The notes below the pieces were generated by a model, which had not been told where the DNA came from, did no database searches, and worked only from the letters and a program-made list of their open reading frames with translations. Position numbers and translations under genes: made by a program. A DNA stretch of 34,531 bases, from the NCBI GenBank assembly GCA_002256025.1, contig NKIB01000207.1, positions 1 to 34,531 of the forward strand. Reading direction: 5' to 3'. Positions 3,703 through 33,113 of this stretch are shown one piece after another; the first letter of the stretch is position 1, and every line of letters starts with the position of its first letter. This DNA comes from Asterionella formosa (taxonomy: Eukaryota).

Positions 3703-3901
3703 TACCATGGTACCTGGTACTTGGTACCAGGTACCTGGTACTCAGTACCATACAGCTTTACTCCTTCCTTGGTTCGTCGTGCGATCGCAATGTGCCTATA
3801 ATACAGTGACCATTACATGCTGACTACCGGTATGATGATACCGGTATTCAGTATCGTACTGGTACCTGGTAACAGGTGCTCTGGACTCTGGAGTACCGGT
3901 A
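3703..3901. repeat. Array of TA-flanked CC..GG micro-units upstream of the FAH gene
   Basis: 3703-3752 reads TA-CCATGG-TA-CCTGG-TA-CTTGG-TA-CCAGG-TA-CCTGG-TA-CTCAG-TA-CCA-TA. Further TACCGGTA/TACTGGTA/TACCTGGTA units occur at 3825-3901. Confidence 0.85.
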
Positions 3902-7016: not shown

Positions 7017-7338
7017 CGAGTACCAGGTACCAGGTACTCCCTCTGTCTAGTAACAGTTGCATCGATTTGCCGGCACCACCAGTGTCTTTACTGTTTGAAT
7101 ATGAAGGATTATGTAGCCAACATACCAAATTTCTACGTGAGGGTCGGCTTACTCGAAAAAATGCGTTTTTTATGAGTTACATAGATGTGGACATATACTC
7201 TGTTTTTGTAATTAAATATTTAGCATCTAAATAAGTTAATCGAAACCAATTTAACATATACTATTTATACATTGGGTACATGTAGATAGATATCAAGCAA
7301 TGCAAATGCATTGATTTTGCATCATTATTTTTGTCAAA

Positions 7339-7551
7339 ATGGATGTTGACTTTGCCAATGCGCCCATTCCTGATGGTCAGATCCTTGGCTTGATGGCCAG
7401 AAACAATGGTCGCAGTTGCGCCCATAATCACTGTTGCGGATCAACAGTAAAGGTTGGCTCTGTGGTTTTCTTCTCTTTCTGTATTGTGTTGGACAAGATC
7501 CTCGAAGAACTCGAGGATGCTATCGAGGTGAGAATGAATATGCGAGGTTAA
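7339..7551 (+). pseudogene. Small Cys/His-rich second ORF inside the mariner, convergent with the transposase (probably truncated)
   Basis: 70 aa with NNGRSCAHNHCCGSTVKVGSVVFF...EDAIEV. ATG is preceded by AAA. It lies between the left TIR and the transposase stop. Confidence 0.45.
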
Positions 7552-7777
7552 GGAGTTGCTCTTTTTACGTTTCAAAATTTTTACTGCTGTGTAGTTAAAT
7601 AAAATCCAACTATAGTTATCCAGCTTGTCAAAGAAACTATAAGTTCAATACATATAGAACCATTAACAACCAGTGCTAGCTAGTATATATATATTTAAGG
7701 GGGAACGTCTTTTGATCCAATGCAGCCATGCAAAATGGCGCCGGAGACGAAAACCCCCTTATCATTACACCCTACTG

Positions 7778-9236
7778 TTAAAAAAGATCATCCAGAAATG
7801 TGCTAGCCAACTCAATTGCTCCTTCCCCAGCTGCTAGCCTATCAGGTAAAATTCCCGCCCGTTCCAGAGCCGCCTTCCCAATGTGAGGTATATTATAATT
7901 GTTGTCGCCATTAACCAAAATAATCTCTTCCAAGCAACCCTGTAATGTTAAGAAAGAACAATTTGATTTGGTTGGTTAAAAAAACGAATGCTGCCTGGTG
8001 CACTGCCTCTATCAAACTGTCGATGTCGTTGTGGGCTTCTTCCACAGAGTCCCATTGACCTGATTGTAATGCCCTAAAAAAAGATAGATCGTTGATATTC
8101 AAATCCGGACTGTTCGCTGGTTGCTTAGTCAATCGAATATCCCATTCTTCTTCTGTTGCAGCTGCTACAAAGGGAGCAAAATCGGAACCAAAATGTGTTG
8201 AAGCATTGTCGTGCTGTAGATATATTCGTTTGTTTCCATCAGGCCACTTCGCTTTTATCATAGGTAAATCATTATCAACAATCATGTCAGCATATGACTG
8301 TTTTGTCACTGGGAGTGACTTTGTTTCCATTGTCCCTGCCAGTCGATAAATTGAACTTCTTTGCGCTGCTACTTGGTGCACAAATGGCCAAATTCCAATT
8401 TTACCACCAAACGTACACACTTTTTCGTTGTCAAAACGCGGACGTGTCACAGCGCGCAGAAAGCAAGGAACATGACCTTTTCGATATACTCCTTATGTTT
8501 CTTCCGCCTTGTGGGAGCCTCTTCTCCATGAGCCAGATATATTTTCAACTTTCCTTCTGAAACAAAGAACCACTTTTAATCTATATGGACCTGGTTGTAG
8601 AAGCCATCATAGTAACCAAACAGTCCCGGATCAAAATCAACATCAGGGGAAGGATGTTCTTGATCTGGATGGTTCAATTGTAAATGATTAACACAGCCAA
8701 TACAATACATAAAACGACTTATCTTACCCTCCTCCGAAAGCATCGGCTTGACTGCACTTGTGTGCAGTCGTATTACAGTCTCTCTGTTATCCTTTGCAAT
8801 CCAAAAAACTGTTGACTTGGGAAGGGCAAGAGCAGCTGCTTTTTTACGATACGTAGTACGCTTGCAATATGGAATACCTCTAATTGCTGCAATTATTTGC
8901 TTCTTCACGTGGGTATTTGCGAGTATACCCAGTCAATAATTTTTGGGAAAGCAATGTAAACACGTAAGTATCATCATTATAATAGGATTCGAGCGCGCGG
9001 TTCCAAATACATTGTATAGTTGTTTTATCAACTTTGAACCGGCCTGCCAAAAATTTAACAGTTCCACACACTAAAATGAGCCAACCATCTATTTTGTCCC
9101 CTCCATCAGGTCCTTTTTGGAGGTTCCATAAACCATAATCCAACATGAGTTGACGCTCTTCTGGTGTTAGATCGTTTCTCATGTGCTTGTTGAGAAGAGG
9201 TGGTGGCAAGAAAAAAGGGGGGTCAGGCATCTGCAT
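7778..9236 (-). pseudogene. Mariner DD39D transposase, inactivated by frameshifts and a nonsense codon
   Basis: Fragments in successive frames: VHID*KWF (stop at 8576-8578 replacing E), KVMFL..VTRPRFD..FGGKIGIWPFV, LQHDNASTH...QPANSPDLNIND (39 residues between the 2nd and 3rd catalytic Asp), FLTLQGCLEEI..GDNNYNIPHIGK..LERAGILP, stop at 7778-7780. Confidence 0.93.
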
Positions 9237-9606
9237 TTCGCTCGAGATGAGCAAAAGTGGAAGTCGAAATAGCCGGAAAACGTTTTTTTCAGATGTAGTT
9301 GCCAATTTTAATCTTTCTATATATAATATATACATGGATCGGTAGCTTAGAGCAAGCTGCACCATAGGGCTATTGAGCCGGAGAAAATCGTAGGAGTCAA
9401 AATGGCCCCGGATAAATTTGAATTATCGATGCAACTGTTACTAGACAGAGGGAGTACCACGCAGGTACTCAGGTTAGTACCAGGGTACCGTTGCCGGTAT
9501 TCGCCCATCGTTGTTCTTGTCAACAATTGATGCTCGTCCGAATGATAAATCATTGCTTCATTCGAATTCGAGGTTGGTAAGCCGTTGAAAAGAGCGACAA
9601 GAAATA

Positions 9607-11899: not shown

Positions 11900-12030
11900 T
11901 GATCATCTTGGCAGAAATAGCAAAATGTTTTGATTTGTCAGATAAGGTGAACTTTACTCGATTTCGAGTAAATTGGTCATTCCATTATCTGCCAAATCAA
12001 AATATTTTCCCTTATCTGCCAAAGTGATCA
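11900..12030. repeat. ~130-bp imperfect palindrome (foldback) built from TTGGCAGATAA-like units
   Basis: TGATCATCTTGGCAGA..AAAATGTTTTGATTTGTCAGATAA..TTTACTCGA|T|TCGAGTAAA-like centre..TTATCTGCCAAATCAAAATATTTT..TCTGCCAAAGTGATCA. Confidence 0.8.
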
Positions 12031-12076: not shown

Positions 12077-12828
12077 CTCCCTCTATCTAGTAACACTTGC
12101 ATCGATTCGCCGGCACCACTAGTGTCTTTATTGTTCGCATATGAAGGATTACGTACCCAACATACCAAATTTCTACGTGAGGGTCGGTTACTCTGTTTCT
12201 GTAATTAAATTATTAGCATATAAATAAATAAATCGAAAACAAATTTAACTTATGCATATTCATTGCATACATGCACATATCGCCAAATGCTGTTTCACAT
12301 CGGCCGGCCACTCAAATATTTGCGGGAAACCGAATACAGCAAGCCACTATCATAATTATAGTGTGAATAGAGTAATTGTTGTTACTTTCTACTGTTGTTG
12401 CGCCTACATGGGCCATACCACCGGATGTTTAACGGTTACTAACTTCAAAACAAGCATACCGACATTTTCTTCCTTTCCATCATTGCAACTTTTGGGGTTG
12501 CGCATTCCAAAATTGAACGCAAGTTGCCGCTGTTCTACTTTCATATCGTGCTTTGTACGTATGTTGAGAATAGATGCTTCGAAGAAAAATGGGTCCTCAT
12601 GCATCTGCATTTTGATCGAGATAGCTAAAAGTGAAAATCGAAAAATCCCAAAAAGGTTTTTTTGAAATGTAATTGCCAATTTTAATCTTTCTTTATATAA
12701 TATATACATGATTCTGTAGCTTAGAGCAAGCCGCACAATAAGGCAATTGAGCCGGAGAAAATAGTAAGAGTCAAAATGGCCCCGGATAAAATTGAATTAT
12801 CGATGCAACTGTTATTGGACAAAGTGAG
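12077..12828 (-). mobile_element. Non-autonomous internally deleted relative (MITE-like, 752 bp) of the mariner at 7037-9454
   Basis: Degenerate TIRs 12077-12106 (2 mismatches to the full element) and 12799-12828, followed by TA. The left ~200 bp and right ~400 bp are colinear with the full element. ORF 12404..12736 aligns with ORF 8880..9365. Confidence 0.92.
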
Positions 12829-12848: not shown

Positions 12849-14235
12849 TGTCTTGGCCAGAAAAATGAAGAGAGGTTTTCAGTGTGAGCCGATGTACAGC
12901 TGAACCGTCTGTCTTACCCACCTACAAAAGAATAATCTATCACGTCATTATAATTTTGCATTTCATCTTTTGATATTGCATTCATACGCTACTGAGCCCT
13001 TTTTGCGGTCGTTGCCTGAACCCTCAACTCCTATTCTTTCTTTGCCGTACTAGACACTGTGAGTTGTCTTTCAACCCACTGCTTCTTCACTTCTGCTTTG
13101 GTTTTCGGTGCAAACAGTACCACAAAGCCTATTGGTTCTTTCCTGATCCCCCAGGTCTTCACCAATGCAACCTGGATGCTAATGTTTGTGCTCTACATCA
13201 CTTTGTCAATACTCCAGAACTATAATCCCCTTTCTGTTCCCTTTGACCTTCTAGGCTCTGATGCATCTGTTCAGGGTATGCAAAGTCCAGGTTATGGTTA
13301 CTACTCACTCCATTTTTCTGATGGATCTACCAGCACCCCTGTCCTCATGTACTACTGCCCTAAGCTGTCTGAGACTCTCCTATCCCCACAACCCATTTGC
13401 TGCCAGGACCTTGATCAGGCATATATTTGCTTCTTCTATGGCCCTTCTGGATGCTTATCAGTTGCAGCACCCTTGACTAGATCAAATAATCTCTTTTCTT
13501 TCAACCAGATTTCCTTTCAGCCTAAAACACACAGCTTATTTCCTATTTTCAGTTCAGAGTTGTGGCATCATCGCCTTGGCCATCCTGGCATGCATCAATT
13601 GGATCAATATGCACAGCAGGATGTGTTTTGTGATCCTTGCCCTCCTCCTCTTGATGCTTCCATCTTTCATTGGGTATGGAAATACAAAATCAAGGAAGAA
13701 GAACAAACCGAGCGAAAAAAGGCTAGAGCTGTTTGTGATAGCTCTACTTGTGGGGGCGAAGCTCAAGTTCATGGTCCCAAGTTTGCAACCACCCCTGACA
13801 TGACAGATATGCGTCTCTTCTTTGCACTTACTGCGCTCGAGAATAAATTGGTCTTTTATGCTGATGTTTTCAAAGCTTTTGCTGAAGCCACTGCCCCTGA
13901 ACAGGCGTACTACATGCGTGTTGATACCCAATACCGTGAGTGGTGGGCAAGCAAAGGTCAGGAAAGAACTTACAAGGTCATCCTGAAGCTCCTCGCCAAT
14001 GGTCCCGCCACATTGATACCATCTTTCAGGAATACAATTTTCCCCACTCAACATGCTACTTGCCTCTACGTGCTACAATTTCCAATGAAAATGTACTTTT
14101 CCTTTGACAAGTTGATGACTTTGCCATTGCAACCAATGACTTGCTTCACTATACCCACATCTGTAATGCTCTGGACAGCAAACTCCTTGTTCCTATGAAA
14201 CAACAACAGCGATAACTCTCTCAACATTACAATGG
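12849..14235 (+). mobile_element. Heavily deleted Ty1/copia LTR-retrotransposon relic (diatom CoDi-like); boundaries approximate
   Basis: ORF 13059..14198 has MYYCPKLSETLLSPQ, GAG-pre-integrase SELWHHRLGHPG, then RT motifs FHWVWKYKIK..RKKARAVCD and ADVFKAFAEA. QHYNG occurs near 14222-14236. The integrase core and RNase H are missing. A possible 5' LTR TGTCT..AGACA at 12849-13056 is weak. Confidence 0.8.
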
Positions 14236-14707
14236 GCGGTATTGTCTGCAAATTGAAAATATTTTATTCGTGTGATGCATCTTATAATGATGATGATTAT
14301 ATGATCATATCAATTAGATTTATCATCTAATATGTATAATATTTATCCTCATAGAGAATATTGTAAGGATTAATAAATAGATGCATGTATATTTGTATGT
14401 TTACCATCACTGATTGCAACCATCAGCAATCGCTCAATCTGAATTTAAATCATTTGTGTCGCAATGGGATAGTCGTACATGGGTATATGTACATTCTGAA
14501 ATTTAAAGGAATATCCTGAAAGTCGTAGTCATATGCCATGTGTTCTCGTTTTTGTAATTGGAAGAATTCCGATATCTATTTCGATGAATCGTGCTGTGAA
14601 TAGAATATGTTCTTTTTGTATGATAAAATATGTCGCTGTCAGGCCAGTAACACATTGACCTTTTCAGGAAAATGATCACAACTTGCAGGTACAGCAAACA
14701 AATACGG

Positions 14708-14760
14708 TTATTTTTTCAAGCCTACCGGTACCTCTAATCTAGGGTTGAATTGCAGGAACC
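14708..14760 (+). mobile_element. Second Kolobok-like right terminus (orphan)
   Basis: TTATTTTTT..GTACCTCTAATCTAGGGTTGAATTGCAGGAACC|TTAA is homologous to 1062-1108 TTATTTTTT..GTACCTCGAGCTAGGGGTTCAAATGCAGCAACC|TTAA. Similarity ends at TTAA. Confidence 0.6.
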
Positions 14761-15384
14761 TTAAATAAACAATTTAATATAGGATAAAGATTACCGCAAC
14801 TCCTTCCAGGTACCTTGGTACCAGTTAAAAACTGTAAGCCACCATTATTTTACTCCATCTTCCGACTGAAAATATTTAAGTAATTTAGCAATCAAAACCT
14901 GATGCAACTACGAAGAGTATGTTAGACGATGCACTCTACTCAACAAATAAGCTCCGGTAATCAATTTCGATTCAGTTTACAAAGCCATGAAGATCTAATT
15001 TTTTCAAAGTCATCAAAGATTGTTGCATAGCGGTGGCTTACAGTGCATATTTTTCTATCCTTACATGAGTATATTTTCCCCCCACACCGTGATTATTTTT
15101 ACTACCGTACGTTGATACTACAGAAATTCTTTTCGTATTAATTTACCTGTTAGGCGCGATACAGTATGTTTTTATGATTTTTGTGGGCACCACTCGTTCG
15201 GTCAACCTACTCGCGCCTCCCAAGCCTCGAACACAAGAATACTCGCAGGCAGTCTCCACCCTTCAGCAACTTAAAATACCCTGCTACCTGGTACAACAAT
15301 TCAACCACGCACAGGTCCACCAATACATTTCGAATCTCCTAACGGTGTATCACTTCCCTCTAGTTTACTACCATCATCATCGCC

Positions 15385-15696
15385 ATGGCCGAAGAAGACA
15401 ACAACATCCTGACAGATGAAGCCAAGCAGCTTGACATGGTTACTGATAGGGTGCAAGAAAAGGAGCTCGACGCATCCAAGGCTCAAGAGGCCATGTCGGC
15501 ACTAGTGGCGGGTGGTCCCAAGGCAAACGACGCCTTGTCACAGATTCAGGTATCCCAGGAAGATGTACAACTGATCGTTGGCGAGCTGGAAGTGACGGAA
15601 GCAGTTGCAGAACGAGCGTTGAGAGAAGTTTCATCTGGGGTGGTTGAAGGACAAGCAGTGGTTGTCGCTGCTTTACGAAGGTTGGTTACATCTTAG
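15385..15696 (+). CDS. HYPK: Huntingtin-interacting protein K (NatA-associated, C-terminal UBA-like domain)
   Basis: 103 aa. LDMVTDRVQEKELD..AQEAMSAL; IQVSQEDVQLIVGELEVTEAVAERALRE..VVAALRRLV. Confidence 0.88.
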   Translation: MAEEDNNILTDEAKQLDMVTDRVQEKELDASKAQEAMSALVAGGPKANDALSQIQVSQEDVQLIVGELEVTEAVAERALREVSSGVVEGQAVVVAALRRLVTS

Positions 15697-15991
15697 TATA
15701 GCCAAATAGGGACGAATCATACTACATTTGAGTTGGCGAAGAAATGCTCCATGTGATGCTCTCTCTATAGACTTTTGTAGGCTGTAGCGCATCAATTTCG
15801 TAGGAATTTGTGAAATATGAATTCCAGTATCAAAACAGCAACAACACTTTGCTTTTACATGATTACGGGGTACCATTGTTGTATACAGAGTCAAATTGCC
15901 TTGTTTTGAAGTTGTCGTTTTCAAGTGGGCTCTTGAACTTTTATGCTTTTGTTTATCAGTGGTTTTCTCCCCTGTCCATTTCGTGATGAAA

Positions 15992-16728
15992 CTATTCTTG
16001 CTTATTAGGCTCATCAGCGCAAATTGGTTCTGATTCCTTCTTCATGAAGCGATCCACTACATTGTTTTGGATCCAGCCAGTAGTTGACAGGGCGAGTCCA
16101 ATACGAAGCGGAACAGCAAAACGAGCGAAATTGACAAAGGCAAAGGCCTCAGCACCCAACTTTTCCATGTCTTCAGCATTACTGAAATCAGGCCAGTGAC
16201 CAGTGACTTCACGGTATCCAAAGACGCAAACAGGAACGGAGACAGCCCAGAAACCAATCTATTGTTTAGTTAGGGAGTAGAAACAGGTTGGGGTGTCAAC
16301 GGCGACATTTGCAAAAATGTTGATACAAATTATACCACAAGTATTCAACCTACCTCCCAGAGGGCATATGAGATGACTCCAGCAAGACCAGCGTCCTTGA
16401 CTTGTTTCATCAACTTCTGTGTGTCGCTGAGCTGTTCCTCCTCTGGTGGAACGACACAAACTTCTTCTTTCTCTTCAACGGTACCTACGACGGGGCTATC
16501 AGTAACAGGAGCTTCCTCTTTCTCGTCGACAACCGTACGCCTAAACGGGTTCTTCAATCCCAAAGACCTAAGATGTGGAGATGTCAGTCTAGAAGCCGCA
16601 TGGTCCAGAGAATTGACGAAGGCTGGAGGAGTATAAGGCAATCCTCGCATGCGACTTCCGACGAAGGATTGAGATTGAAAGGCGACAGAAGTGGTGACTA
16701 CAGATAGAAAGATGGCAGCTGATTTCAT
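15992..16728 (-). CDS. Plastid-targeted uncharacterised membrane protein (DUF1279-like C-terminal domain), 213 aa, 2 exons
   Basis: Exon 1 16728-16354, intron 16353-16259 (GTAGGT...CTAAC..TAG), exon 2 16258-15992. Signal peptide MKSAAIFLSVVTTSVA|F. Spliced product KVKDAG-like QVKDAGLAGVISYALWE|IGFWAVSVP...GHWPDFS...ARFAVPLRIGLAL. Confidence 0.82.
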
Positions 16729-16952
16729 GGTGAAAAATCAAAAAATTATGAGGGGAGGCTTATTGAAAGTGGGGATGGTGGGAATGAATCAAAGGAAGCA
16801 GAGAGACAATACAAGCTAGTACAAGGTACCATGTAATAAGGAGGAGGTCGATCGATGTCACTTGTCATACTGAGGTTGAACGAGATCAATACAGCAGGAT
16901 TTATTGGCGCATGGATGTAGCAGTTGATTACAGACAAATCTATACGATAGGC

Positions 16953-17605
16953 GGTACTCGGAGCACCTGGTGCTCCCTGTCCGGAGTCCTCCGTACATCC
17001 GTAAAGTACCTGCACCTGGTACCGATAACTGTATTCTAGAGTTGTATCTATATACCTATACGGTAGTCTAGTATGGTGTCAGTCTATACATAATGACGTG
17101 TTTTCTGAATTGATTGACTACCCCCAGAATAAAAATACCGGAGTTTATTTTAATACGTACCGGAATAGGTATTAGTACTGACCAACTACGGTACATACAG
17201 GTGTTAAACGAACATCTGTATTCAGCAGGGAGGCAGAGGAAAGGAGGGGTTAACAAGCGAGACTCTCGCTCACAAACATAACAGTATTTCTTATTTGCTT
17301 GGCTGCACCAGTATGCATACCGGTAGGTATACATAGTACTGGTACCAGGTACCAGGGTACACAAGCATCGCACTGACATCATTCGCAATGATAATCATCC
17401 TGTTGTCCATCATTCATAGCAACGTATTATGTAACAATGCTCTGAGCAAGCATACCGGTAGGTAGATAGGTCTGTACCTGGTACCCTGGTACGTAGGAGC
17501 TGAGTACCCGGTACCCGGTGCCATGTACCGGTGTACTACGGTACCTGGTACCGGAGCACTGTACTGTAAAAGATACCAGGAGTACCAATACATAAAAAGG
17601 GGTGA
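16953..17605. repeat. Dense cluster of TA-flanked CC..GG micro-units in a divergent promoter region
   Basis: Examples: TACTGGTACCAGGTACCAGGGTA (17337-17359); TACCTGGTACCCTGGTA, TACCCGGTACCCGGTG and TACGGTACCTGGTACCGG (17475-17554); several TACCGGTA. Confidence 0.85.
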
Positions 17606-17785
17606 TGCACGTTAGCTTCCGGTACATGGAACAAATTCAGATTCGTTGTTCCACCCACATCACCTCGGTGACGATGCGGATGAGAGCCATTCTGACGGTG
17701 CCATCCTCGTTCCTTTTGTGTATTACTTGAGAGCAATTGTATTTCTATTCTTCCTTTCCACCACCAAATTGGTATTAGTGAGGCC

Positions 17786-19165
17786 ATGAATCCTGACGTA
17801 GTAAGCGCAATCAATGCCATCCAAGCGGTGATTGGCTCTGACGCTGGTAACAGGGGAATGAAGGCGCTGATTGTCGATGGTGATTTGCTTGCCGCTTCCG
17901 AGATCTTTGGCAGGTTGGAACCATCCCATGTGGTTATTTTAACGGGGTTTCCCTGCTGTGTCAACGAAACTCCACCAACAGAAACCGATGGTCCACCTGG
18001 CGCTTTGGCACTTGCTAGAGCAGCCTATCACTTCGGCCACACTGTGTCGGTGATAACGGACGATTGTAACAAAGCAGTCTTTGACGCTGCAATGAGTCAT
18101 ATCGGTGACTGGTTGGAGGATGCATCGAAGATTAAGTTGGAATGTTTCCCTTCCAGCATCAACCAGATGCACGAGGCACGCCTAGAGGTTCTTGCAGACA
18201 AATGTGGGTTGATCTTAGCTTGTGAACGCGCGGGGCCTGCTTTAGATGGGATGTGCTACACCATGCGAGGTATCAACATGAACGATCAAGGTTTGATTGC
18301 ACCCATTCATCGCATTGTGGAAAAAACGCGTGGAAGAAATTGCATGTTTCTAGCCATTGGAGATGGTGGTAACGAACTTGGGATGGGGAAAGTTCTGGAC
18401 ATCATCAAAGAATCCATTCCAAATGGTGAGAAAATCGGCTGCATCATTGCAGCAGATCGACTAATAGCTGCCAGTGTCAGCAATTGGGGAGGCTATGCAC
18501 TAGCTGCTGGTGCAGCTTTAATAAGGGCGATGCATGAAAGCAAGTCCGACGATGATTTTGCTGACAAGGTTGATGAATGGATTGGAAAATGTCTGCCAAC
18601 TGAGACAGAAGAAATCGCTCTCCTGCAAAGGTGTGTTGATGCTGGTTGTCGAGACGGTGTAAGTGGAAAGGTGGAGGCCACTGTTGATGGTATGCCCCTC
18701 GAGACTAGCATGCAGGCATTGTGGAACATCCGTAAATTAGCATTATTTGACAGATATGGAGAATACAATCTTTCATGTCACTGTGGCAAAGTAAAGGCGA
18801 CCTTCCTATGTGATCGAAAGTCCATAACAGCATGGGATTGTAACTGCACAGACTGTGCCATGCGTGGCAATATTCACATCATTATTCCAAAATCTAATTT
18901 TCAAATAAATGGACATGAATGGAGGGGAGAAACAATTGAGTACTTGTGGGGTTCTAAGGTTGCAATCCGTCGCTTTTGCAAATTTTGTGGAGTGCTACCT
19001 TTCTACACGCCTCGGTCTAATCCAGAGGGGGTTGCAATCACTGTAGCTTGTATAGACTGGGGAGACTATGTAAAACCGGAAATTCTGACAAAACGCTTTG
19101 ATGGGATAAACTGGGAGGAAAGTTACAAAGCCACTGCTATTGCAAACGAGACAAAAAGCAGATAG
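17786..19165 (+). CDS. DUF4392 (D-glutamate cyclase C-terminal-like) domain fused to a GFA/CENP-V zinc-binding domain
   Basis: 459-aa single ORF. VILTGFP..ETDGPPG, CERAG, AIGDGGNELGMG, SVSNWGGY, DGVSG..TVDG, followed by LSCHCGKV..CNCTDC..RRFCKFCGV..PRSNP..FDGINWE. Confidence 0.85.
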   Translation: MNPDVVSAINAIQAVIGSDAGNRGMKALIVDGDLLAASEIFGRLEPSHVVILTGFPCCVNETPPTETDGPPGALALARAAYHFGHTVSVITDDCNKAVFDAAMSHIGDWLEDASKIKLECFPSSINQMHEARLEVLADKCGLILACERAGPALDGMCYTMRGINMNDQGLIAPIHRIVEKTRGRNCMFLAIGDGGNELGMGKVLDIIKESIPNGEKIGCIIAADRLIAASVSNWGGYALAAGAALIRAMHESKSDDDFADKVDEWIGKCLPTETEEIALLQRCVDAGCRDGVSGKVEATVDGMPLETSMQALWNIRKLALFDRYGEYNLSCHCGKVKATFLCDRKSITAWDCNCTDCAMRGNIHIIIPKSNFQINGHEWRGETIEYLWGSKVAIRRFCKFCGVLPFYTPRSNPEGVAITVACIDWGDYVKPEILTKRFDGINWEESYKATAIANETKSR

Positions 19166-19226
19166 GATATGTCTCTAATTCATGAATTTGCATCATCCGT
19201 CTAGCTTTTCTTCATGTTGTATGAGT

Positions 19227-22200
19227 TTAGAGTGTCAAAAAGCCCCGTGCCGTGACTCGGAAGGCAGTCAATTTTTGTGTGAACCTGTCACGATTTGCAG
19301 AGTCGAGCGACCGACTGACATCTCCCAAAAGCTTGTTGAGTGCTTCATTCAACTGCGCTTGATTTTCAGGGTTCTGCGAACTCAGCAAATGGTCTTTATA
19401 TGCGGAAAACGAGGTCTCGCTTGCCAGCATCAACGATAACATTGGACGCATGACGGACCAGTGATTTTGAGGTGGGCCAAAGAGGAGGAGGTTGAAAAGG
19501 GTAGCAGTCAAACTGGAAAAAAGGTTAGGTTGAGCAGCCAAGTGCTATTATCATGATGAAGGAATGGAGCATGTTTAGGAAATAAATAGAGCAAACAGAG
19601 AATTGAACACCAAACAGTATTACACTTACCTTGTTCAAATTGTGCATCTCAACCTTATCTTTCCCATTCGTTTGGAAGTAAAAGGTTGCAAGGTGATCAA
19701 TTGCATTTGCGCAGAGCGATGAGAGAGTTGCATCACTTGCTTGGAGACCTTCATGAACTGCAGTCATGAGCTGCATGAACACTCCAGTGTCCAGTGCAAA
19801 AACGGTTTTTTGATGATTGCGGAAGAGAATTTCAATGAAACCATAGACGGCTTTGCTCAGTTTAGGATATGCGACGATATCATCTAAAGGAACACTGAGA
19901 GCCATCTGCAAAGCAATGTCCAGTGAGCTATCCAATGCTTGGTCATTGTAAAGTGCAAAAACACCGAAACAAACGTAGTTGCCACCCAACGCAGAATTCA
20001 GAACATTCATTGCCAAAGCCATACCCTTGTACCGATTCTTGTAAATGTCAAGAGCATTCCCACTGGGCCTAGGTTGAGCCATGAGTCGTCTACCAAATGC
20101 GCAGACCACATCGCTGGTCGATCGAAAAAGTAAAATGCCGTTGGGACTGCTCTGGTCGAAGTTAACTCGGTTCGCTTTGTTGTGGCAGAACTCATGCAGA
20201 AATCGAAGAATGCTGATGGTGACATCGGTCTGGTCATGCCAAACATCGACAACCTTTGACAACAATGGAAGGTGATTTGGATGCATGAGGTCGAACAAAA
20301 GGCCATATGTTCTCCTGTTGTGAAGGCTTGCTGCAACACCGCGCAAATCTCTGAACACGCCAATTAATGGACGACGACAGTTTTCAATTCTGAGCTCAGC
20401 TGAGGCTAGAGCTCCGAGTTGGCCAAGCGTGTTCAACAGTGGTTCCATAAATTGCTCAAAAGTTAGACCTAACTTTTCCTCCCCACCAGGCGAGAGCAAC
20501 AATCTCGTCAAGGTTGCATGAAAAGTTGTGCGATGTCGAGCATTTGATGGGACCGCTAGGAAGGGGAAGTGATCTTCTGTATGATGCCTCGCCAAGAATC
20601 TTACTGTTTCTAAAGTCAACAAAAGCTTTGAGCTGCTATAGCCACCAGCCATATCGTGAAGCAACTCAAGAGTTTTCCCTACAATCTCTTGTTCTTCTGG
20701 CCAGAACTTGAGATTATTCCCCATTTTCGTAACGATGAGATTCGCTACAGCAGTATGATCACCCATTTGTAAGTGCTCAAACATTCGCTGGTAGACCTTT
20801 TGCTTCGTCGATGGGGCCGAGTCCAACTTTGCTGCCATCATTCCAACAACTGACACCGAAGTGCCACCTGGACTTCCGGAACTGGTTCCAGACACCTGAT
20901 CCCACATGAACATATATACTCGACGAAAATTCTGAAAATAGAACAGAAGTGCTTGTTCAAGTCGAGGATCAGTCCTTCCAATGCCGCTGGATGACGTTAA
21001 TCGATAGTCGACGCCTTGAGCCAACTGAAGAGCCCTTCTACTCAAACTGGCATCTATCGTTTCCTCGCCTTCCCCCATGTGTGCTGACGACCAGCTATGA
21101 CCACCGACGATAGTTCCTACTAAGTAAGTCAACCAAGTCAACTGCCCTTCAATAATTGCCATGCGTTGCTGAACATCCTGTGGAGCATTTTCAGTGCTAC
21201 TAGATCCCAGTTGTCCAATAATTTCCCGATATTGGTTCATTAAAGGGTCAAACTTGTTCAGAATCATATTGGCGATTGGTCCGTACTGAAATCTACAGAT
21301 AACTGGAAGACGATCAAGCTGCTCCATCAAAGAACCATCATCATCAAGGGGGTCATCAAGCGCGCCGTCACTACGGAGAACAGTCTCTACAGAATCGAGC
21401 ATGCTTTCTATGTACGTTTCAGCAACAAGGAGAACTTGCTTCTCAAGATGCTGAACATGGCCGCGAGCACCTGCTTCAGGCCTAACGTATGGGACAGCGG
21501 CAACCAAACGACCCCATAGTGCCAAAAGGTAGTGTATTGAATTTGTGCTGTATTGCCAATTTCGAATGGACTGTACCGTGAATGATGCCGCCAATTCGAG
21601 CCATTCCAAGTATCCATCGGTCTTCACTAGCTCACTCAATTGATAATTTGCTTTCAGGCGTCCCAAAAGGCGGCAAAACTGATGATAGTTTTCCTGATGT
21701 GCAAGTCCGGTCTGGTTCTTGAGGAGCTCCCGAATGCCATTGATGAGAAGGCCCAGAAATGCAGCTCGATCCTTGTCCGTTGGAAAGAGCGATCTCCTTA
21801 TTGACGAAAGTAGAATGACCGCTTCCATAGCTTTTGAAGAACGGGGTGGCTCTGTCTTCGCATAAAAGTCAAAGAGGAGTTCAGTAGTAGCAGGATCTTG
21901 CAAGACGGTCCTCCACGAAGTTGGAGCTTGGATTGTCCCGACATCTTCGGTAGATTCATCTGGGTTGGTACCGATAAAATCGAAGTTAAGGCATCTTACA
22001 GTCAAGCCAAGAGCTTGCTCTCCAAGAATAGCCTCTTGTTGAGGATTAGCAGCTGTGATGATAAAACAGCAAATGATTTAGTATATGGCGAATAGAGCAT
22101 CCATTACTTAGTCTACTAAAAACTTACCAATAGCGCGAGTTTGAAGCTGCTTCAACGTAGTTAAACCCAATTGAAAGACTTTGAAGAGACAAACATCTCG

Positions 22201-22749
22201 AAAGCTCACGCTGGATTTCCTGTGTTGAGTCAAGGTGCGTCCTGTTGTCGGGATATTAAGCTCATCAACCAGCTGATTCAGGATTTTTAGTCCCAAAATG
22301 CAGTGGTCGACTGTCGCCTGCAAAAACTTTGTCACGTCGTCGGCAAGCTCCCTATGTGTAGGATCATCAAACCATCCTAGCTTGGTGATTCGACAGACAA
22401 GTTTGATCAGTGAACTAACAACAAAGTCCTGCATGGAAGGCCCCTTATTTGCCAAGTAGCCAAGGACATAATTTCTGATATCGATACGCTGCAGTACTGT
22501 AAAAGAGTTCCAGTAGTTGGTGATAAGTTCTGTGAGGCTGTTTGCGGCGACAAGACGAGCGTACGGGGAAGTCGATGTATCCAGAATAAATTGACATTGT
22601 GGAATGAATTCAGCCGATGACTGAAGACTCAGTAGCCGTGCCTGAGCATCTTGGCGCGAAATCGGCTTTCCGTCTTCTGATGTGGAAGGAGTTCCAGAGT
22701 ATAGCGTTTCGCACAACGCTTCGACTTGAGCAAGTTGCTGAGCATCCAT
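19227..22749 (-). CDS. XPO7: Exportin-7 / Ran-binding protein 16 (importin-beta family), 1120 aa, 3 exons
   Basis: Exons 22749-22128, 22052-19630 and 19544-19227. GT-AG introns 22127-22053 and 19629-19545 give an in-frame 3363-nt CDS. Motifs LAQVEALCETLY, RITKLGWFD, CLNFDFIGT..DES.ED..TIQ.P.SWR, RLKANYQLSELV, NHWSVMRPML, NRDRFTQKL. Confidence 0.95.
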
Positions 22750-23083
22750 TTTTAAAATAGTAAAAAAGTAAAACGGAGCACAAACAGAAAGGATTTCGGC
22801 AAAGCCACAGCCAATGAGTCTTCCTTTCGCTATTCTTCTTGTTCGGTTTTCTGAGCTTCTGCTCGCAGCCACAAATCCAACGAGACGCTGAGAGTCCAGG
22901 AAGCGTTAAAGAGAGCGAAAGAGGAAACTAAAACCGACTCGTTCTGATCGTCAAACTTCAAATAATATATTATTAAATACTGGTATGTCTATGGGCCATT
23001 TCAGGATTCTAGATGATGTACGACGTTATTGTTTCTATCGACCTGTCGTCGTTGCATATGAGGATGTGGTTATGATATGGAAG

Positions 23084-23749
23084 TACCAGGGGTACCTGGT
23101 ACTGTGGTATTACATGTAAATATATACCGGCAGATTATTCGAGGCGGCTCGAAATCTTGCTTTTATTGTTTTCCGGGGTAACAGTAATGTTCAATTGGAC
23201 TGAAGAAACGACAGCCAAGCAACGACCAGCAACGACCTCGTCGTAAAAATGACTCGTACAGGAGTACCGGGCAGAAGTGGATGACAAAATAGTTTTGTAT
23301 CGCTTGTTTTTGGATATATATTGTTGTACCCTAGCCTACTCAATATCCTATTATGTAGCTAACGGTAAGTTGCGGTCATTTTGCTTAAAGAAATAATTTA
23401 ATATGGGATAAAGACAGCTAAATTGTTGGATTCAGCACAATTACCGCAATTCGCTCGTACCGCCAAAGCATATACCAGTTACCAGTACCAGGTACCCTAC
23501 ATTCTAGATGTCTTTAGACTACCGGTATTACCAGGACGCTGTACCAAGTACCAGGGACGTGGTACGTGGTACTTGTACACGCCTGTGTCCATCAGCCTTT
23601 ATCTGGTGCTGATGTGTGCGTGGCCCCCATTGCCTTGCATAGATTAAGATTCCCTGGTCCCGTTTCAGTCATCATTATCTGCGTGAATGTGGTCAGACAG
23701 ACATGCATAGCATGGTAACATTTAGTACCAGGTACCAGGTACCTGGTGC
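23084..23749. repeat. Cluster of TA-flanked CC..GG micro-units upstream of XPO7
   Basis: TACCAGGGGTACCTGGTA (23084-23101); TACCAGTTACCAGTACCAGGTA and TACCGGTATTACCAGG (23473-23535); TACCAGGTACCAGGTACCTGGTG (23726-23748). Confidence 0.8.
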
Positions 23750-24288
23750 CACTCCTAGTACATCGAATAATATACTCGTAGGATTTGGTAATAAGTGTAG
23801 CTAGCTACCAAATGTGGATAGGGAATGACTCAGAGGACTAAGATATAGTAATAGTTCGCACTGTTCTGACTTGGTGGGCAGGTGGATCATGAAAAAATGG
23901 CTTGGCGGCTACTAGGAGGCCTTCACATGGTTCAATTCTATAAATCGGCAAAACAATGAGATAACTATATCTGAGCCTGGTCCACATATGTTAACCCCTT
24001 CCTGCCAGCCAGTTGGCTAATCCTTCAACTGTCACAACTGCTTCCTTTCAGGACTTGGTATGACACAAAGCTTATTGTTAGTAGCATTTACTTCAGAGCA
24101 TGCTCGTCTGCACAAATGTCCTCATTTGCTTTTGCCTTACGTTTCACCAACAAGAAGAATCAAGATTCCCTGGTCCCGCCTCAGTCATCATTATCTGCGT
24201 GAATGTGGTCAGACATGCATAGCATGGTAACATTTAGTACTACCCTTACCACATATATACTCTTAGGATTCGGTAATAAGTGTAGCTA
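23646..24288 (+). repeat. Direct repeat pair, 23646-23803 and 24162-24288
   Basis: AAGATTCCCTGGTCCCG..TCAGTCATCATTATCTGCGTGAATGTGGTCAGAC..ATGCATAGCATGGTAACATTTAGTAC is nearly identical in both copies, followed by ATATACTC.TAGGATT.GGTAATAAGTGTAGCTA. Confidence 0.92.
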
Positions 24289-24309
24289 AGTTACAAAGTG
24301 TGACTGACT

Positions 24310-24652
24310 ATTTGTGTTCCAAGTTCCCCATGAAAAGGTCACAGTTTAGAGAGGAACTTTCAGAACAAGTGTTCTCTAAATGGACTCTAGTAACTAGGAA
24401 GCGAACAGATCTAAAGACGAAGTCGATAAATGATTGATTAGACAATTGCAGATATGTCCACCAAATCAAGGAATAGTCAAGAAGCAATTCATAAATAATC
24501 TAGTTTTGATTCTTACTACGATAACTCAGTAAGTAGTCTTTTCAAACAGCATCTGGGCCTAAAGCTGGGACAGGTCAAGATGAGACTACTACATAAGTGA
24601 ATTCAGGAAGAGGATCTAGTTAATCTTAGTTCAAGAAGCTGGGAACACAAAT
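24310..24652. mobile_element. Possible solo-LTR or MITE relic bounded by 11-bp inverted repeat
   Basis: ATTTGTGTTCC (24310-24320) / GGAACACAAAT (24642-24652) with a TG..CA core. A purine run on the minus strand lies just outside the right end. No target-site duplication seen. Confidence 0.3.
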
Positions 24653-25178
24653 GAACCTCACCTCCAAAGATCACCTCTCTTTTGAAACATGCATGAAAAG
24701 AAACTAAACATTAAAATTTTCATTTCCTTTATGCTTGCTCTCTTAATTGCAATAGCAACCAAAAGCAAAGTAAAACAAAGTAATTTTTACTGTCTTGTAA
24801 GAGGTAGCAGAGGAATATTGCACATACCTCTGATAAAGACATTCAATGGTGAACATCAACAGTAGTATGTTGGAAGATACATATGTCCAATATGTATGTA
24901 TGTGCCAGTACTTCAATATATGGATTAATGACAGACAGCATACCCCTGCAGTATGCTGATGAATTTATAGAGCACATATTAGTAGAAGTAAACAATTGGT
25001 AACTTTATTTCTCTGTGTCTGGCAGCATAAGATGCTTTCGTCATGATATGTTCAGTGCTTGTTAGTATATTTGGAATAGTACCTGTCACCCTGGTACCTG
25101 GAAGCAGCCATCATTCAACTTCAATAGGACAATGAATCGATCATATTATGAGTTGCAAGCCACAAGCAATATTTACAG

Positions 25179-25250
25179 TTACTGGTATGCATATTACTTC
25201 GTGGACAGATCATCTTACTGGTATGCATATTACTTCGTGGACTGATCATC
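25179..25250 (+). repeat. 36-bp tandem duplication (2 copies, 1 mismatch)
   Basis: TTACTGGTATGCATATTACTTCGTGGAC(A/T)GATCATC at 25179-25214 and 25215-25250. Confidence 0.95.
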
Positions 25251-25410
25251 GCTCTATTTTCCACCGAAGGTAGGAGCAAAATGAACACCTACTGCCGGTA
25301 GAACGGAAACACTTGAACGACCCTGTCTAATTGTACCGGCACAATTATACAATCAAGACTATATTGTTTGGTATTGTCACTGTTTTTCTTTCTTATCGTC
25401 TCTCGCTCAC

Positions 25411-27432
25411 ATGGAGCAAAACAGTGCTCCACCGGAGCTACGTGGAATATTCGGAGACAAAGGAGACTCGGCAAACTGGCGCGATGAAATGGACAAGTTT
25501 CCAAACGGAGTACCGCGCTTCGAGTCGGGACCCGAATGTCTTGAGTTTATGAAATGGTACTGCACCAATAATGGTGGATCGAACCCAGATTTCCCTCAAT
25601 TGATGCATATCTTCACCATGTTGATCAACTGGGAGCAGATTGAAACGATTCTGTTACCAAACATTGAGAAAGCACGCAGTGAACCGTCTTTCGCCAGGAA
25701 GGTGCCTCGTGACTACCTGGGCAAGGAGTCGGATCCCTCCTCCAAAAACGTTTATGAAAATCCTGAAAGTCGTGAAGTACTTGATGAAATTTCTTTTCGA
25801 TTGGAATTGCCGATTCATCGATGTACCACGCCAATATCGACGTTGAACACCCTCAAATACCTTTTCTTTCACATGAAGTGTGGCATCTTCGTCATGATTC
25901 GCAATGGCAAGCTCAGGATCTTTGCTCCTTTTGTAAATATTGACTATAGAAATTCATGGGGTGACACGCTTGCCCTAGAAGGAGATGGCTCACTTGATAC
26001 GTACTACTCGAACAAGGCGGGACTTTACAGAGAGGAGCAGATTGAGAGGGACAGGAGCAAGTGGTGGGCGAACGGCAATATAATTTGCAACGAACTGGCC
26101 AAAGATAGCGACAAGGACAAGATGCAGCATTGGGGGGATCATTTCCTGGCACCGCTCCGCGATATGCTTGCTGAAGCGTGCAACACCCGTGAAATACCCG
26201 ACTGTGAGTTCTTTCTCAATAAGCGTGATTACCCCCAATTAAAGGTCAATGTCCCCCGAGGCGGGATCCCAGTTGAGCCATATGGATTTATTTTTGGTAA
26301 GGATGACAGAGATCCAGCGGAAGATGTTGATTTAGTGGAAGAGCACAGCTTTAAATCCTTTGCACCAATCGTATCTTTCTACGCGGCTGCTCCTGATCGG
26401 TTCAGCGATATTCCGTGGCCATCGTCTGAAGATTGGGAAGCTGCCTGTGGTCTAGTATTTCCACCCACGTTCATTCACTCCAAAAATAAGGAAACTGGTG
26501 ATGTTGAATTTGGTAGTAAACCCCGCGACTTATTTACTGAAGCAAACTTTCGAAAGTTCGAGCGCGAGTGGGAAGATAATCGCGTTGCAACCGCCTTTTT
26601 CCGAGGCACTGCTACTGGTGGGGGGACAACCATAGACAACAACCAACGCCTAAAGGTAGCTTATCTCAGCCATGAGTGGAAAGATGATCCAGAAAAGGGA
26701 GGTGAGGAGCCTTTCTTGGATGCCGCAATCGTGGGGTGGAACCTGAGAGACAAGAAGATTGCAGGGGCTCCTATGACTTTCCTGAGGTCAAAGGAATTCG
26801 AATTTACAGCTGGGCGACATCACTTTACACCTATTTACGAGCAGTCGAAATACAAATACTTGGTTTATGTGGATGGTCACTGCGCCGCTTGTCGTTATGG
26901 ATTCATGATGCGCTTGGGAGGTGTCATTTTGAAGGTTGCACCCCGTCAGGTTGCTGACCGAATGTGGTATTTTCCTCTTTTGAAACCTTACCACGATCAT
27001 GTGCCTGTCAATGCAGATTTATCTGACTTGGAGGAGAAAATTCGCTGGTGTCGAGCGAATGACGCAAAGTGCAAGGAGATTGGGCAGAATGCGATAAAGT
27101 TTTATGAAAAATACGTTGGCAAACAAGCTTTGCTCGACTATGTTGAGATGGTGTGCAAAAGCGTGGCGGCGCGATACATGCCTCCGCCCGACTGGTGGAC
27201 ACCAGCCCCCAAGGAAGAATCTCCACCCAAGCTGAGACGTCCTGATGTACCCTGTTATGAAGATAAGCAAAGTGGGCAATCTCGATTGTGTATTCGATGC
27301 CAAGAGGACGAAGAACTGGAAGCCCAACACGAAGCAGAAGATACTGCAAAGGCTGCGGCCCAGAAATCTGACAAAAAATCTACCCGAGCTAAGTTACGTG
27401 AGCGTATGAAGAAGAGAATTAAGCAGTCATAG
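25411..27432 (+). CDS. Glycosyltransferase family 90 (CAP10/KDELC-like) protein without signal peptide
   Basis: 673 aa. PDCEFFLNKRDYP, AFFRGTATG, KYKYLVYVDG..RYGFMM..VILKV..WYFPLLKPYHDHVPV..DLSDLEEKIRWCRAND..IGQNA. An alternative 5' exon is possible (ATG 25281, intron 25298-25424). Confidence 0.88.
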   Translation: MEQNSAPPELRGIFGDKGDSANWRDEMDKFPNGVPRFESGPECLEFMKWYCTNNGGSNPDFPQLMHIFTMLINWEQIETILLPNIEKARSEPSFARKVPRDYLGKESDPSSKNVYENPESREVLDEISFRLELPIHRCTTPISTLNTLKYLFFHMKCGIFVMIRNGKLRIFAPFVNIDYRNSWGDTLALEGDGSLDTYYSNKAGLYREEQIERDRSKWWANGNIICNELAKDSDKDKMQHWGDHFLAPLRDMLAEACNTREIPDCEFFLNKRDYPQLKVNVPRGGIPVEPYGFIFGKDDRDPAEDVDLVEEHSFKSFAPIVSFYAAAPDRFSDIPWPSSEDWEAACGLVFPPTFIHSKNKETGDVEFGSKPRDLFTEANFRKFEREWEDNRVATAFFRGTATGGGTTIDNNQRLKVAYLSHEWKDDPEKGGEEPFLDAAIVGWNLRDKKIAGAPMTFLRSKEFEFTAGRHHFTPIYEQSKYKYLVYVDGHCAACRYGFMMRLGGVILKVAPRQVADRMWYFPLLKPYHDHVPVNADLSDLEEKIRWCRANDAKCKEIGQNAIKFYEKYVGKQALLDYVEMVCKSVAARYMPPPDWWTPAPKEESPPKLRRPDVPCYEDKQSGQSRLCIRCQEDEELEAQHEAEDTAKAAAQKSDKKSTRAKLRERMKKRIKQS

Positions 27433-31094: not shown

Positions 31095-32699
31095 TTATGG
31101 TGCGCCCGCAGCGACCAAAGGAGTGGCAATCGAGGGTGAGGTGAACTTTTCGACGACACACATGTCTTCAAAGAAGCACTTGTGCAAGTTCAACACCGCA
31201 TTCTCCAACTGATCATCAGCTAAAATGAAAGAAATATTCACCTTGCTGGCACCTTGCGACATCATTTCAACTTTGATATTTTCGGTGGAGAAGACGCGAA
31301 AGACGGTTGCCAGCACTTCGCTTGAGCGTTCAACATCAGTAATTAGAGTGAGAATAGACTTGTTCTCTTTCAAGGTAACCTCGGCATAGGGTCCCATAGC
31401 CTTGATCAAACAGTCGATGCTATCCATTTTCTGTTTCTTGTCAAGAGTTAGTGAAACACTCACTTCACTACTGGCCAATACGTCGACACTGATCTTGTAC
31501 TTGTCAAAGTCACCAAAGACTTGAGCCAAAAATCCATAACACCCCAGCATCTGCGTAGAGTGAATGTCCATCAACTTAATATCACGTTTGTACGTAATTG
31601 CAGTGACAAGACGGGAGTCACCATCAACAACCTTCTTCCCGATCACAGTACCGACAGCGGAGGGGTTGTAGGAGTTTTTGACGCGAACAGGAACGTTGTA
31701 TTTCATGGCAGGCTGCATGGCAATCGGATGCAGGACCTGAGCTCCAAAGTATGCCAGCTCAGACGCTTCTTCGTAAGATACGCTATTTACTGGGATAGCG
31801 TTGACGACAAGGCGGGGGTCACTCGAGAGAATTCCGTCCACGTCCTTCCAAACTTGAATCTCGTCCAATTTCAACGCGCTCCCAATGGCAGTAGCAGTCA
31901 GGTCTGATCCACCACGCCCCAAGGTAGTGATCTTGCCGTTGGGATCGTGTCCAATGAAACCGGTAACGACAGCAACAATATTGGGGTCAAGGCTTCCAAA
32001 GGCAGCGCGGACAGCGTCTTCGTGGGAAGGAATCAGCCTTGCGTCGCCAAAGTTTGAGTCAGTCAAGATGCCCATTTCCCATGCATCAAAGGCCTGAGCA
32101 GGAATGCCAATTTGATTCAAGCGAGCAGCCATGATTCGTACAGCACAACGCTCACCATAACTAACAAGCTGGTCAAGAGATTTGGGAGAGAGCTCTTGAA
32201 TGAGGCGGACGCCATTCAGCATGTCTTCACATTCGTCTAAAAGGGCAGTGATATCTTTGGCAGTGTTTTCCGGAGTGTTGAACTCGTGCAGAGTGGCAGC
32301 ATGGAGAGTACGAATCGCGTCAATGTTGACCCGGCCTTCCAACGCAAAGCTACCAGCGCTCAATAGGTTGTTGGTCGTCTTGCCCATGGCGGAGCAGATC
32401 ACAGCGCGAGGTCGATACCCGAGGGCGATTTGGTCCTTGATAAGATTGGCCACATGATCGATTCTCTCAAAGTTCGCCAACGACGAGCCACCGAATTTCA
32501 TAGTCACGTCCTTTGGCACCTTGGTTGTGTCGGGTTGCCGTGTGATTGAGAGCTGCTCCTTGTAATCGCTGACAGCCTCATGCGCCTCCTCGTTGCCTGC
32601 AGCTTCATTTAACTTGATTGGCGGCGCAAAGGCTCGGATGGGCAACACAAACGCGGTTGCGCTGCTTGCAAGGAACAGCACTGACAGAACGAATCGCAT
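31095..32699 (-). CDS. lysC: Aspartate kinase, monofunctional with two ACT domains, plastid-targeted (534 aa)
   Basis: MKFGGSSL, CSAMGKTTN, LVSYGER, VTGFIG..ITTLGRGGSDLTA, WKDVDGILSSDPR, ELAYFGAQVLHP, SSEVSVS, MSQGASKVNISF. Bipartite presequence MRFVLSVLFLASSATA|F from ATG 32699. Confidence 0.96.
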   Translation of the reverse strand: MRFVLSVLFLASSATAFVLPIRAFAPPIKLNEAAGNEEAHEAVSDYKEQLSITRQPDTTKVPKDVTMKFGGSSLANFERIDHVANLIKDQIALGYRPRAVICSAMGKTTNNLLSAGSFALEGRVNIDAIRTLHAATLHEFNTPENTAKDITALLDECEDMLNGVRLIQELSPKSLDQLVSYGERCAVRIMAARLNQIGIPAQAFDAWEMGILTDSNFGDARLIPSHEDAVRAAFGSLDPNIVAVVTGFIGHDPNGKITTLGRGGSDLTATAIGSALKLDEIQVWKDVDGILSSDPRLVVNAIPVNSVSYEEASELAYFGAQVLHPIAMQPAMKYNVPVRVKNSYNPSAVGTVIGKKVVDGDSRLVTAITYKRDIKLMDIHSTQMLGCYGFLAQVFGDFDKYKISVDVLASSEVSVSLTLDKKQKMDSIDCLIKAMGPYAEVTLKENKSILTLITDVERSSEVLATVFRVFSTENIKVEMMSQGASKVNISFILADDQLENAVLNLHKCFFEDMCVVEKFTSPSIATPLVAAGAP

Positions 32700-32823
32700 G
32701 GGGTCAAGGAGCCGCCGAGAACAACGAAAGGCCAAGGTATACCGTACTGGGGAGGTGAGCAAAGCCCAATCAGTTTTTGCTGTGTTCTGGTTACTATGAA
32801 CGGTAACTCGAACCTGGACCATG

Positions 32824-33113
32824 TATGGTACCAGTACCAGTACCAGTGCCAGTGCCAGTAGCAGTACCATTACAAAACATGACGAACTCACATTGTGCAG
32901 ATCGACTACCTGGTACCCTGGGAGTACCTGGTGATTACAGGTAATTACTCCGGTTACGAGTGTGTCTTCATAGTACATAAGTAATTGTTGAAGGGAATAC
33001 CGGTACCGGTAAATAACCTTTGCCACCCTTAGTTAAACAACGATGTGGGCTGCTGTATAATGACTACCGGTATCTGGTACCCTGGTACCAGGTGCCAGGA
33101 CCAGGTACCGGTA
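32824..33113. repeat. TA-flanked CC..GG micro-unit cluster upstream of aspartate kinase, including a (TACCAG)n microsatellite
   Basis: TATGGTACCAGTACCAGTACCAGTGCCAGTGCCAGTA (from 32824); TACCTGGTACCCTGG; TACCGGTACCGGTA (32998-33011); TACCGGTATCTGGTACCCTGGTACCAGG..CCAGGTACCGGTA (33065-33113). Confidence 0.85.

Follow-up and report, generated by a model that had tools for sequence, protein, structure and literature searches.

Short TA-bounded CC(W)GG units in a freshwater algal contig, tentatively read as scars of transposon excision

The 34,531-nt contig NKIB01000207.1 of Asterionella formosa, which we analysed at its full length and refer to as the window, carries numerous short units that are bounded by TA on both sides and have CC..GG termini, and a 21-bp block that distinguishes the two copies of a direct repeat is one small array of this window-wide class. 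Singletons are in excess, the arrays are heterogeneous, and the ends of mariner-like elements lie within such arrays. From these observations we infer an origin by excision: at a little short of an even chance, the units are transposon-type scars left at TA hot spots, with some copies added by slippage.

The 21-bp difference had been noted in a first-pass annotation, and its coordinates and letters were all reproduced, MAFFT placing a single 21-column gap at the position of the block. The direct repeat is ~170 bp long, and its two copies (Table 1) differ by CCAGGTA-CCAGGTA-CCTGGTG after TTAGTA. Copy 1 reads TTAGTAC (23722-23728), CAGGTAC (23729-35), CAGGTAC (23736-42) and CTGGTGC (23743-49) followed by CACTCCTAGTACAT, and copy 2 reads TTAGTAC (24234-24240) followed by TACCCTTACCACAT. 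Overall identity is 75% over 175 columns, gaps included; the repeat search of the window gave flanking matches of 92% (23643-23704 with 24159-24220), 100% (23698-23728 with 24210-24240) and 86% (23770-23812 with 24255-24297). Copies 1 and 2 further differ by three indels, of 14, 4 and 6 bp, that are of another type than the TA-bounded units. TRF found period 7 at 23725-23751 (3.9 copies, 85% matches), and 23715-23765 is predicted to form a DNA hairpin (-8.8 kcal/mol, z -2.4).

The block had been described as exactly three 7-bp units at a TA, which agrees with the 21-column gap and the period of 7. Because the 15 nt to its right are identical at only 10/15 positions (hand count, against 86-100% in the rest of the repeat), the exact count of three is alignment-dependent, and the third unit closes with TG instead of TA. 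Units 1 and 2 are identical, and the sole departures of unit 3 are A>T and A>G. The letters of the mixed CCAGG/CCTGG orientation are as annotated; because these two reverse complements differ at the central base only, the mixture amounts to a lone A/T difference. The view of the block as direct evidence of insertion does not hold, as two copies fit insertion or deletion alike. Because two copies cannot set the polarity of an indel, the block alone is no proof of serial insertion.

In run X1, the summed contig depth of 23342-25342 was ~40-90 times that of nearby single-copy bins, summed depth being no measure of copy number, and in contigs of three runs 6642 and 23367 are joined through a single intervening C. 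Because of this high depth and these joins, we regard both copies as members of a dispersed repeat family and not as a private duplication. The stretches 6000-7036, 14671-15260 and 23342-25342 all had very high summed contig depth in 4/4 runs, as dispersed repeat families, and those at 6642 and 23367 adjoin each other in further copies of one family. The repeat core had no match in viral contigs and none in genome contigs.

Table 1. Features of the window and contig pieces of further samples compared with it.
Feature	Position	Strand	Remarks
Heterogeneous array CCATGG/CCTGG/CTTGG/CCAGG/CCTGG/CTCAG/CCA	3703..3752		includes TACTCAGTA at 3739-3747
Left flank of element A	7021..7036		TA CCAGG TA CCAGG TA, then element
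Element A, mariner-like	7037..9454	-	TA both sides (7035-36, 9455-56), 30-nt perfect TIR CTCCCTCTGTCTAGTAACAGTTGCATCGAT
Right flank of element A	9455..9502		TA CCACGCAGG TA CTCAGG..TAG TA CCAGGG TA CCGTTGCCGG TA
Element B	12077..12828	-	short internally deleted relative of A, TA-flanked, right TIR decayed
Unit cluster	17316..17563		roughly twelve 6-, 7- and 8-bp units; gene at 17786 lies downstream
Copy 1 of direct repeat	23643..23816	+	carries 21-bp block
21-bp block, copy 1 only	23729..23749		after TA at 23726-23727
Copy 2 of direct repeat	24159..24302	+	without 21-bp block
Homogeneous (CCAGTA)x7 array	32826..32870		substitutions only; slippage-like
Heterogeneous array CCGG/TCTGG/CCCTGG/CCAGG(TG)/CCAGG(A)/CCAGG/CCGG	33065..33113
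Sample X7 piece	15267-17313		gap total +6
Sample X7 piece	17467-19487		gap total +7
Sample X2 piece	21933-23969		net -1, 13 gap letters; spans 21-bp block
Sample X7 piece	22534-24093		net -1, 13 gap letters; spans 21-bp block
Sample X2 piece	16647-18018		39 gap letters
Sample X5 piece	15260-23694		20 gap letters

Across the window, TA-CC(N0-2)GG-TA occurs 49 times, against 0.6 expected from 40 Markov simulations. With the CC(N0-2)GG core kept constant, TA alone is enriched and the 15 other bounding dinucleotides occur 0-2 times each; with TA...TA kept constant, CC..GG alone stands out among the 16 inner termini, the others reaching at most 8. The observed and expected counts in the window are 22 and 0.17 for TACCGGTA, 10 and 0.07 for TACCTGGTA, 8 and 0.07 for TACCAGGTA, 13 and about 0.7 for TACTGGTA/TACCAGTA, and 39 and 6.1 for GGTACC. 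The spectrum consists of CCGG (22), CCWGG (18), CCAG/CTGG (13), CCG/CGG (7), CCAGGG/CCCTGG (5), CCATGG (1) and rarer forms. Its general form is TA-C(1-3)W(0-2)G(1-3)-TA with 3-7 inner nt, and C and G runs range from 1 to 4 (CCCGG, CCCTGG, CCAGGG, CCAGGGG, CCCCG), CCC- or GGG-run units accounting for 9/107 unit matches. The outer neighbours of TACCGGTA, which is a perfect 8-bp palindrome, are apparently unconstrained (before, G6 A9 T1 C6; after, C8 A3 T9 G2), and CCWGG units have G before them in 15/18 cases and C after them in 16/18.

The units lie in intergenic DNA almost throughout, on the promoter side, at a density of ~2.5 per kb (88 in 34.5 kb), and the arrays within the long frame 31095-33026 are upstream of its probable true start. 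The aspartokinase frame at 32400-33026 (minus strand) extends upstream through the (CCAGTA)n array, which is read as (LV)n. It has an internal Met, then a hydrophobic stretch and 'ATAF', MRFVLSVLFLASSATAF, that looks like the true start, and this leader may be of the type that directs proteins to the complex plastids of algae. The long frames of the window encode eukaryotic nuclear proteins (exportin-7, importin-beta N-terminal domain, mitochondrial carrier, aspartokinase, GT90 and a Copia-type fragment), and tRNA and Rfam scans of the window gave no hits. The stretch 17000-26999 is present in 20 of the 24 public runs listed, from 16 studies, with labels of algae, freshwater and lake-water metagenomes. 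Because these 20 runs carry freshwater or algal labels, we regard the host as a widespread freshwater alga.

Several further features were observed in the same DNA. MITE-like hairpin inverted repeats with arms ~76-80% complementary and TA-rich flanks lie at 748-910, with TACCGGTA directly after, and at 11900-12030, just upstream of element B. A plus-strand Copia-type retroelement fragment at 13059-14198 gave weak gag-pre-integrase and RVT_2 matches, and a 36-bp tandem duplication in perfect register (97% identity) occupies 25179-25250, just upstream of the GT90-domain gene. In the plus-strand frame at 17786-19165, a D-glutamate cyclase-like C-terminal domain (E 5e-76) is combined with a GFA domain, and the product of this frame had no usable match in the protein atlas. 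The 14-mer GCATACCGGTAGGTA occurs at 17316-17330 and 17451-17465, 135 bp apart, heading two unit clusters, possibly through a local duplication.

A strict TA parse yielded 88 units in 68 chains, namely 52 singletons, 14 doublets, one triplet and one quintuplet. Adjacent units differ in 16/20 pairs, and in length in 10/20; identical neighbours (4/20 pairs) compare with 2.1 expected from random draws (permutation p=0.11). Chained units number 36/88 against 7.3 simulated under uniform TA choice, a value attained in 0/2000 simulations, which is a clustering ~five-fold over uniform TA re-use. CCWGG is found chiefly in arrays and CCGG chiefly alone (13:5 versus 5:17, Fisher p=0.0035).

Like units and singles at chance level, as expected of a slippage microsatellite, were absent class-wide and present in the homogeneous array at 32826-32870 and in block units 1 and 2. 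Because slippage does not seed singletons and copies units without varying them, it cannot be their main source. The earlier argument against slippage alone is thereby upheld for the class, with 52/88 singletons and 16/20 unlike pairs, and not for the block, whose orientation mix is one base. The accompanying proposal that each event supplies a new TA, so that arrays grow, leaves the clustering of 36/88 chained units against 7.3 simulated unexplained. The CCWGG-in-arrays and CCGG-alone split is not predicted by a lone scar process, and together with the clustering excess it therefore requires a hot spot, a target preference or a second process.

Element A provides a candidate for the kind of transposon involved. 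Its ends form a 34-nt perfect inverted repeat with arms 2.4 kb apart, and transposase remnants occupy three minus-strand frames (7911-8492, 8576-8932 and 8880-9422), the window copy having no intact transposase frame, possibly on account of introns. The broken frames retain the minus-strand motifs DEKW-type, IYLQHDNASTH and QPANSPDLNINDLSFF. Among the longer proteins searched, the transposase has 26 relatives at E<=0.001, many of them 430-500 aa long, and a profile of 20 of these best matched the Mos1 mariner transposase (E 2.4e-5), followed by Tc3 and Sleeping Beauty. The profile-Mos1 alignment registers on DEKW, QQDGA and SPDLN, and the DEKW, HDNA and SPDLN motifs of element A align to the regions of Mos1 D156, D249 and D284. 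The invariant D337 and D372 of the relatives have 34 residues between them. A DUF7769 N-terminal domain is present in 14/20 relatives, and Pfam DDE_3 matched weakly, below threshold. With TA duplication, TIRs and a DDD triad all present, element A is mariner-like, and together with its 26 relatives and their profile match to Mos1 it places a TA-targeting transposase in the lineage. The transposase profile had no match in viral contigs, and the element tip none in viral or genome contigs. A plus-strand frame of 298 aa with a RusA Holliday-junction resolvase domain (9607-10503, E 4.9e-14) adjoins the right end of the element.

The element-tip scan of metagenome contigs returned two loci, L001 and L002, that are one site, the same locus on opposite strands, and represent a third insertion of the A family with its left TIR deleted. 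At L001 2600-2770, the left TIR is replaced by a ~60-bp direct duplication of the flank, a messy deletion at the element end. The alignment of A, B and L001, three copies only, contains no unit-type indels inside the element.

All five readable ends of this family (left and right of A and of B, and the shared L001/L002 site) adjoin TA-bounded units, and TA-CCWGG-TA is exact at 3/5. Written reading into the element, with a slash at its boundary, the A right end is TA CCTGCGTGG TA/, the B left end TA CCTGG TA(A)/, the B right end TA CTGG TA CTAGACTAG TA/, and the L002 end TA CCTGG TG TA CCTGG TA/. The sole TACCWGGTA across the 5.5 kb of L001 is at the element end. The three independent insertions, 3/3, thus lie in arrays.

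PMC7827188 states that the nicks made by Sleeping Beauty and mariner transposases lie three nucleotides within the element, with scars equal to the overhangs, and PMC1925063 describes Stowaway scars as 1-4 TIR nucleotides within TA...TA, e.g. TACTC...AGTA. The active bamboo element Ppmar2 has the tip TA/CTCCCTCCGT (PMC6696609, Table 1). The tip of element A, TA/CTCCCTCTGT, starts TA/CTCCCTC and shares 9/10 of its first nucleotides with Ppmar2; from this match an overhang of CTC and CTC/GAG scars are therefore expected. Such scars were at background in the window (TACTC..TA, 9 against 7.2; TA..GAGTA, 5 against 7.7), and TACTC(N0-2)AGTA was observed twice against 0.38, once as TACTCAGTA at 3739-3747. 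For the resident CTC..GAG family, the inner letters of the units are thus not those of the element tips. Searches of the window for TA-flanked and for TACC...GGTA-ended TIRs found no CC..GG-ended element and returned element A plus array-to-array matches only.

The annotation had interpreted the units as footprints of a CC..GG-ended element. The TA bounding (49 against 0.6), the CC..GG termini and the presence of a TA-targeting family in the arrays bear this out; the resident scars are unenriched, and the TA-flanked element with CC...GG termini that had been predicted is absent from the 34.5-kb window. The source of the units would be either another family outside the 34.5 kb, an extended tip of the A family, or inner letters derived from repair. 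If the A-family tip were really CCWGGTA-CTCCCTC, 3/5 ends would fit exactly and two loosely; we rate this below even chance, since the tested plant TIR to which the tip aligns has CTCCCTC as its start. The Mos1 repeat begins CCAGGT, as the extended tip would. Scars of the hAT-type hairpin (P-nucleotide) kind and longer target duplications were dropped because singletons show no constraint on their flanks past TA.

In the reading that we tentatively favour, a Tc1/mariner-like cut-and-paste transposon would enter a TA, duplicating it, and on excision would leave behind short remnants of its termini, CC(W) at one end and (W)GG at the opposite end. End joining with variable trimming would yield units of 6, 7 or 8 bp, arrays would build up where events recur at hot spots, for example at earlier scars and in intergenic DNA on the promoter side, and replication slippage would contribute some array copies. 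The unit spectrum is what trimmed CCW/WGG overhangs would give, and the heterogeneity of neighbours fits junctional diversity; CCC- and GGG-run units require an added assumption. A bolder version, which we consider possible but unlikely, is that a mariner-type transposon prefers its own scars, each round adding a TA-bounded CC(W)GG unit, so that promoter-side arrays grow de novo to a few units per kb and vary between strains.

Contig pieces of three further samples (X2, X5 and X7) contained gap letters only where array-bearing intergenic DNA is spanned (Table 1), these gaps being known as totals per contig piece and not by position. Five listed genic pieces were without gap letters (X2 16146-16616, 19265-20313 and 20322-21858; X7 19490-20903 and 21680-22121). 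The gap sizes suggest changes by 6-7-bp units, and slippage would yield equal totals.

Plain microsatellite dynamics would have a GGTACC-type 6-7-bp repeat expand by slippage, perhaps aided by hairpins, and then decay by point mutation, the block, apart from two substitutions, then reflecting either the gain of three units by copy 1 or their loss from copy 2. The likeness of block units 1 and 2 with the third two substitutions away, an 'orientation' that comes down to one base, the hairpin at the block, the homogeneous (CCAGTA)x7 array at 32826-32870 and clustering above random TA re-use all agree with this account, and the unit-sized gap totals between samples are equally compatible with it. 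As an explanation of the class it is nonetheless improbable: 52/88 units are single, TACCGGTA occurs 22 times against 0.17 expected with its outer flanks unconstrained, 16/20 neighbour pairs are unlike and 10/20 differ in length, and slippage explains neither why the units are so strictly bounded by TA nor why they are associated with mariner ends. A different origin altogether, for instance as selected palindromic promoter motifs among which the mariner-like family merely lands by target choice, without leaving scars, appears distinctly improbable. An inner length of 3 to 7 nt and irregular arrays are unlike a binding site, units are present in repeat-family DNA too, e.g. in copy 1, and the motif is unnamed in the open-access papers and preprints searched. 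In favour of such motifs, TACCGGTA has the perfect 8-bp symmetry of a dimeric-factor site, 3/3 independent insertions lie in arrays while the element tips are unlike the units, and the units are nearly all intergenic and promoter-side, a position to which a compact genome restricts any neutral insert regardless.

The mismatch between tips and units would also be accounted for by a repair signature independent of the tip, in which breaks at TA are trimmed and their 3' ends gain a few C before joining, giving C(n)...G(n) whichever element left. It would explain scars unlike CTC..GAG and C/G runs of 1 to 4, but it leaves the central A/T unaccounted for, and such end joining in algae was not found in the literature examined; we know of no end-joining activity that adds C to 3' ends in algae, and we consider this account very improbable.

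Provided that the units did arise by excision, they form a log of very many past transposon visits and would show that cut-and-paste transposons are able to generate abundant short palindromic arrays in the promoter regions of a compact algal genome. This would have a bearing on the birth of microsatellites, on gene-proximal mutation hot spots and on the typing of strains of this widespread freshwater alga. Re-entry of a transposon into its own scars, if true, would make this a self-reinforcing, transposon-written source of microsatellite-like, hairpin-forming DNA. Should the units prove not to be scars, it would still have to be explained why a motif enriched 80-fold is so strictly bounded by TA.

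Known footprints of Tc1/mariner elements (Sleeping Beauty TA-C(A/T)G-TA; Stowaway/Osmar5) likewise have TA on both sides and few nucleotides between, and they share with the units mutually complementary inner ends (CC..GG) and a variable length as after end joining. The present case differs from them in its ~2.5 units per kb with arrays of up to five strict units, and in that no candidate source whose tips match the units is present in the window. Clean scars are uncommon in rice, where 8/94 excisions were 'perfect' (PMC4423477), and PMC1925063 describes one Triticeae locus at which an element re-inserted next to an earlier Stowaway scar. In open-access papers and preprints, we found no literature on dense TA-bounded CC(W)GG units or on the array sequences seen here.

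Plant mariner-like elements and Stowaway MITEs (TIR CTCCCTCCGT) resemble element A in the TA duplication and in a tip that shares 9/10 nt with Ppmar2. The putative transposase of element A is of the DDD type with Mos1 as its nearest solved relative, and its family differs from the plant elements in having 34 residues between the second and third D, in the DUF7769 N-terminal domain of its relatives and in its host, a freshwater alga. A spacing of 34 residues is that of animal mariners, and plant elements have 39. With microsatellites and short palindromic repeats, the units have in common a head-to-tail arrangement of 6-7 bp, some homogeneous arrays and suggested length differences between samples; in contrast to microsatellites, the units described here are mostly single, and most of their arrays mix lengths and sequences.
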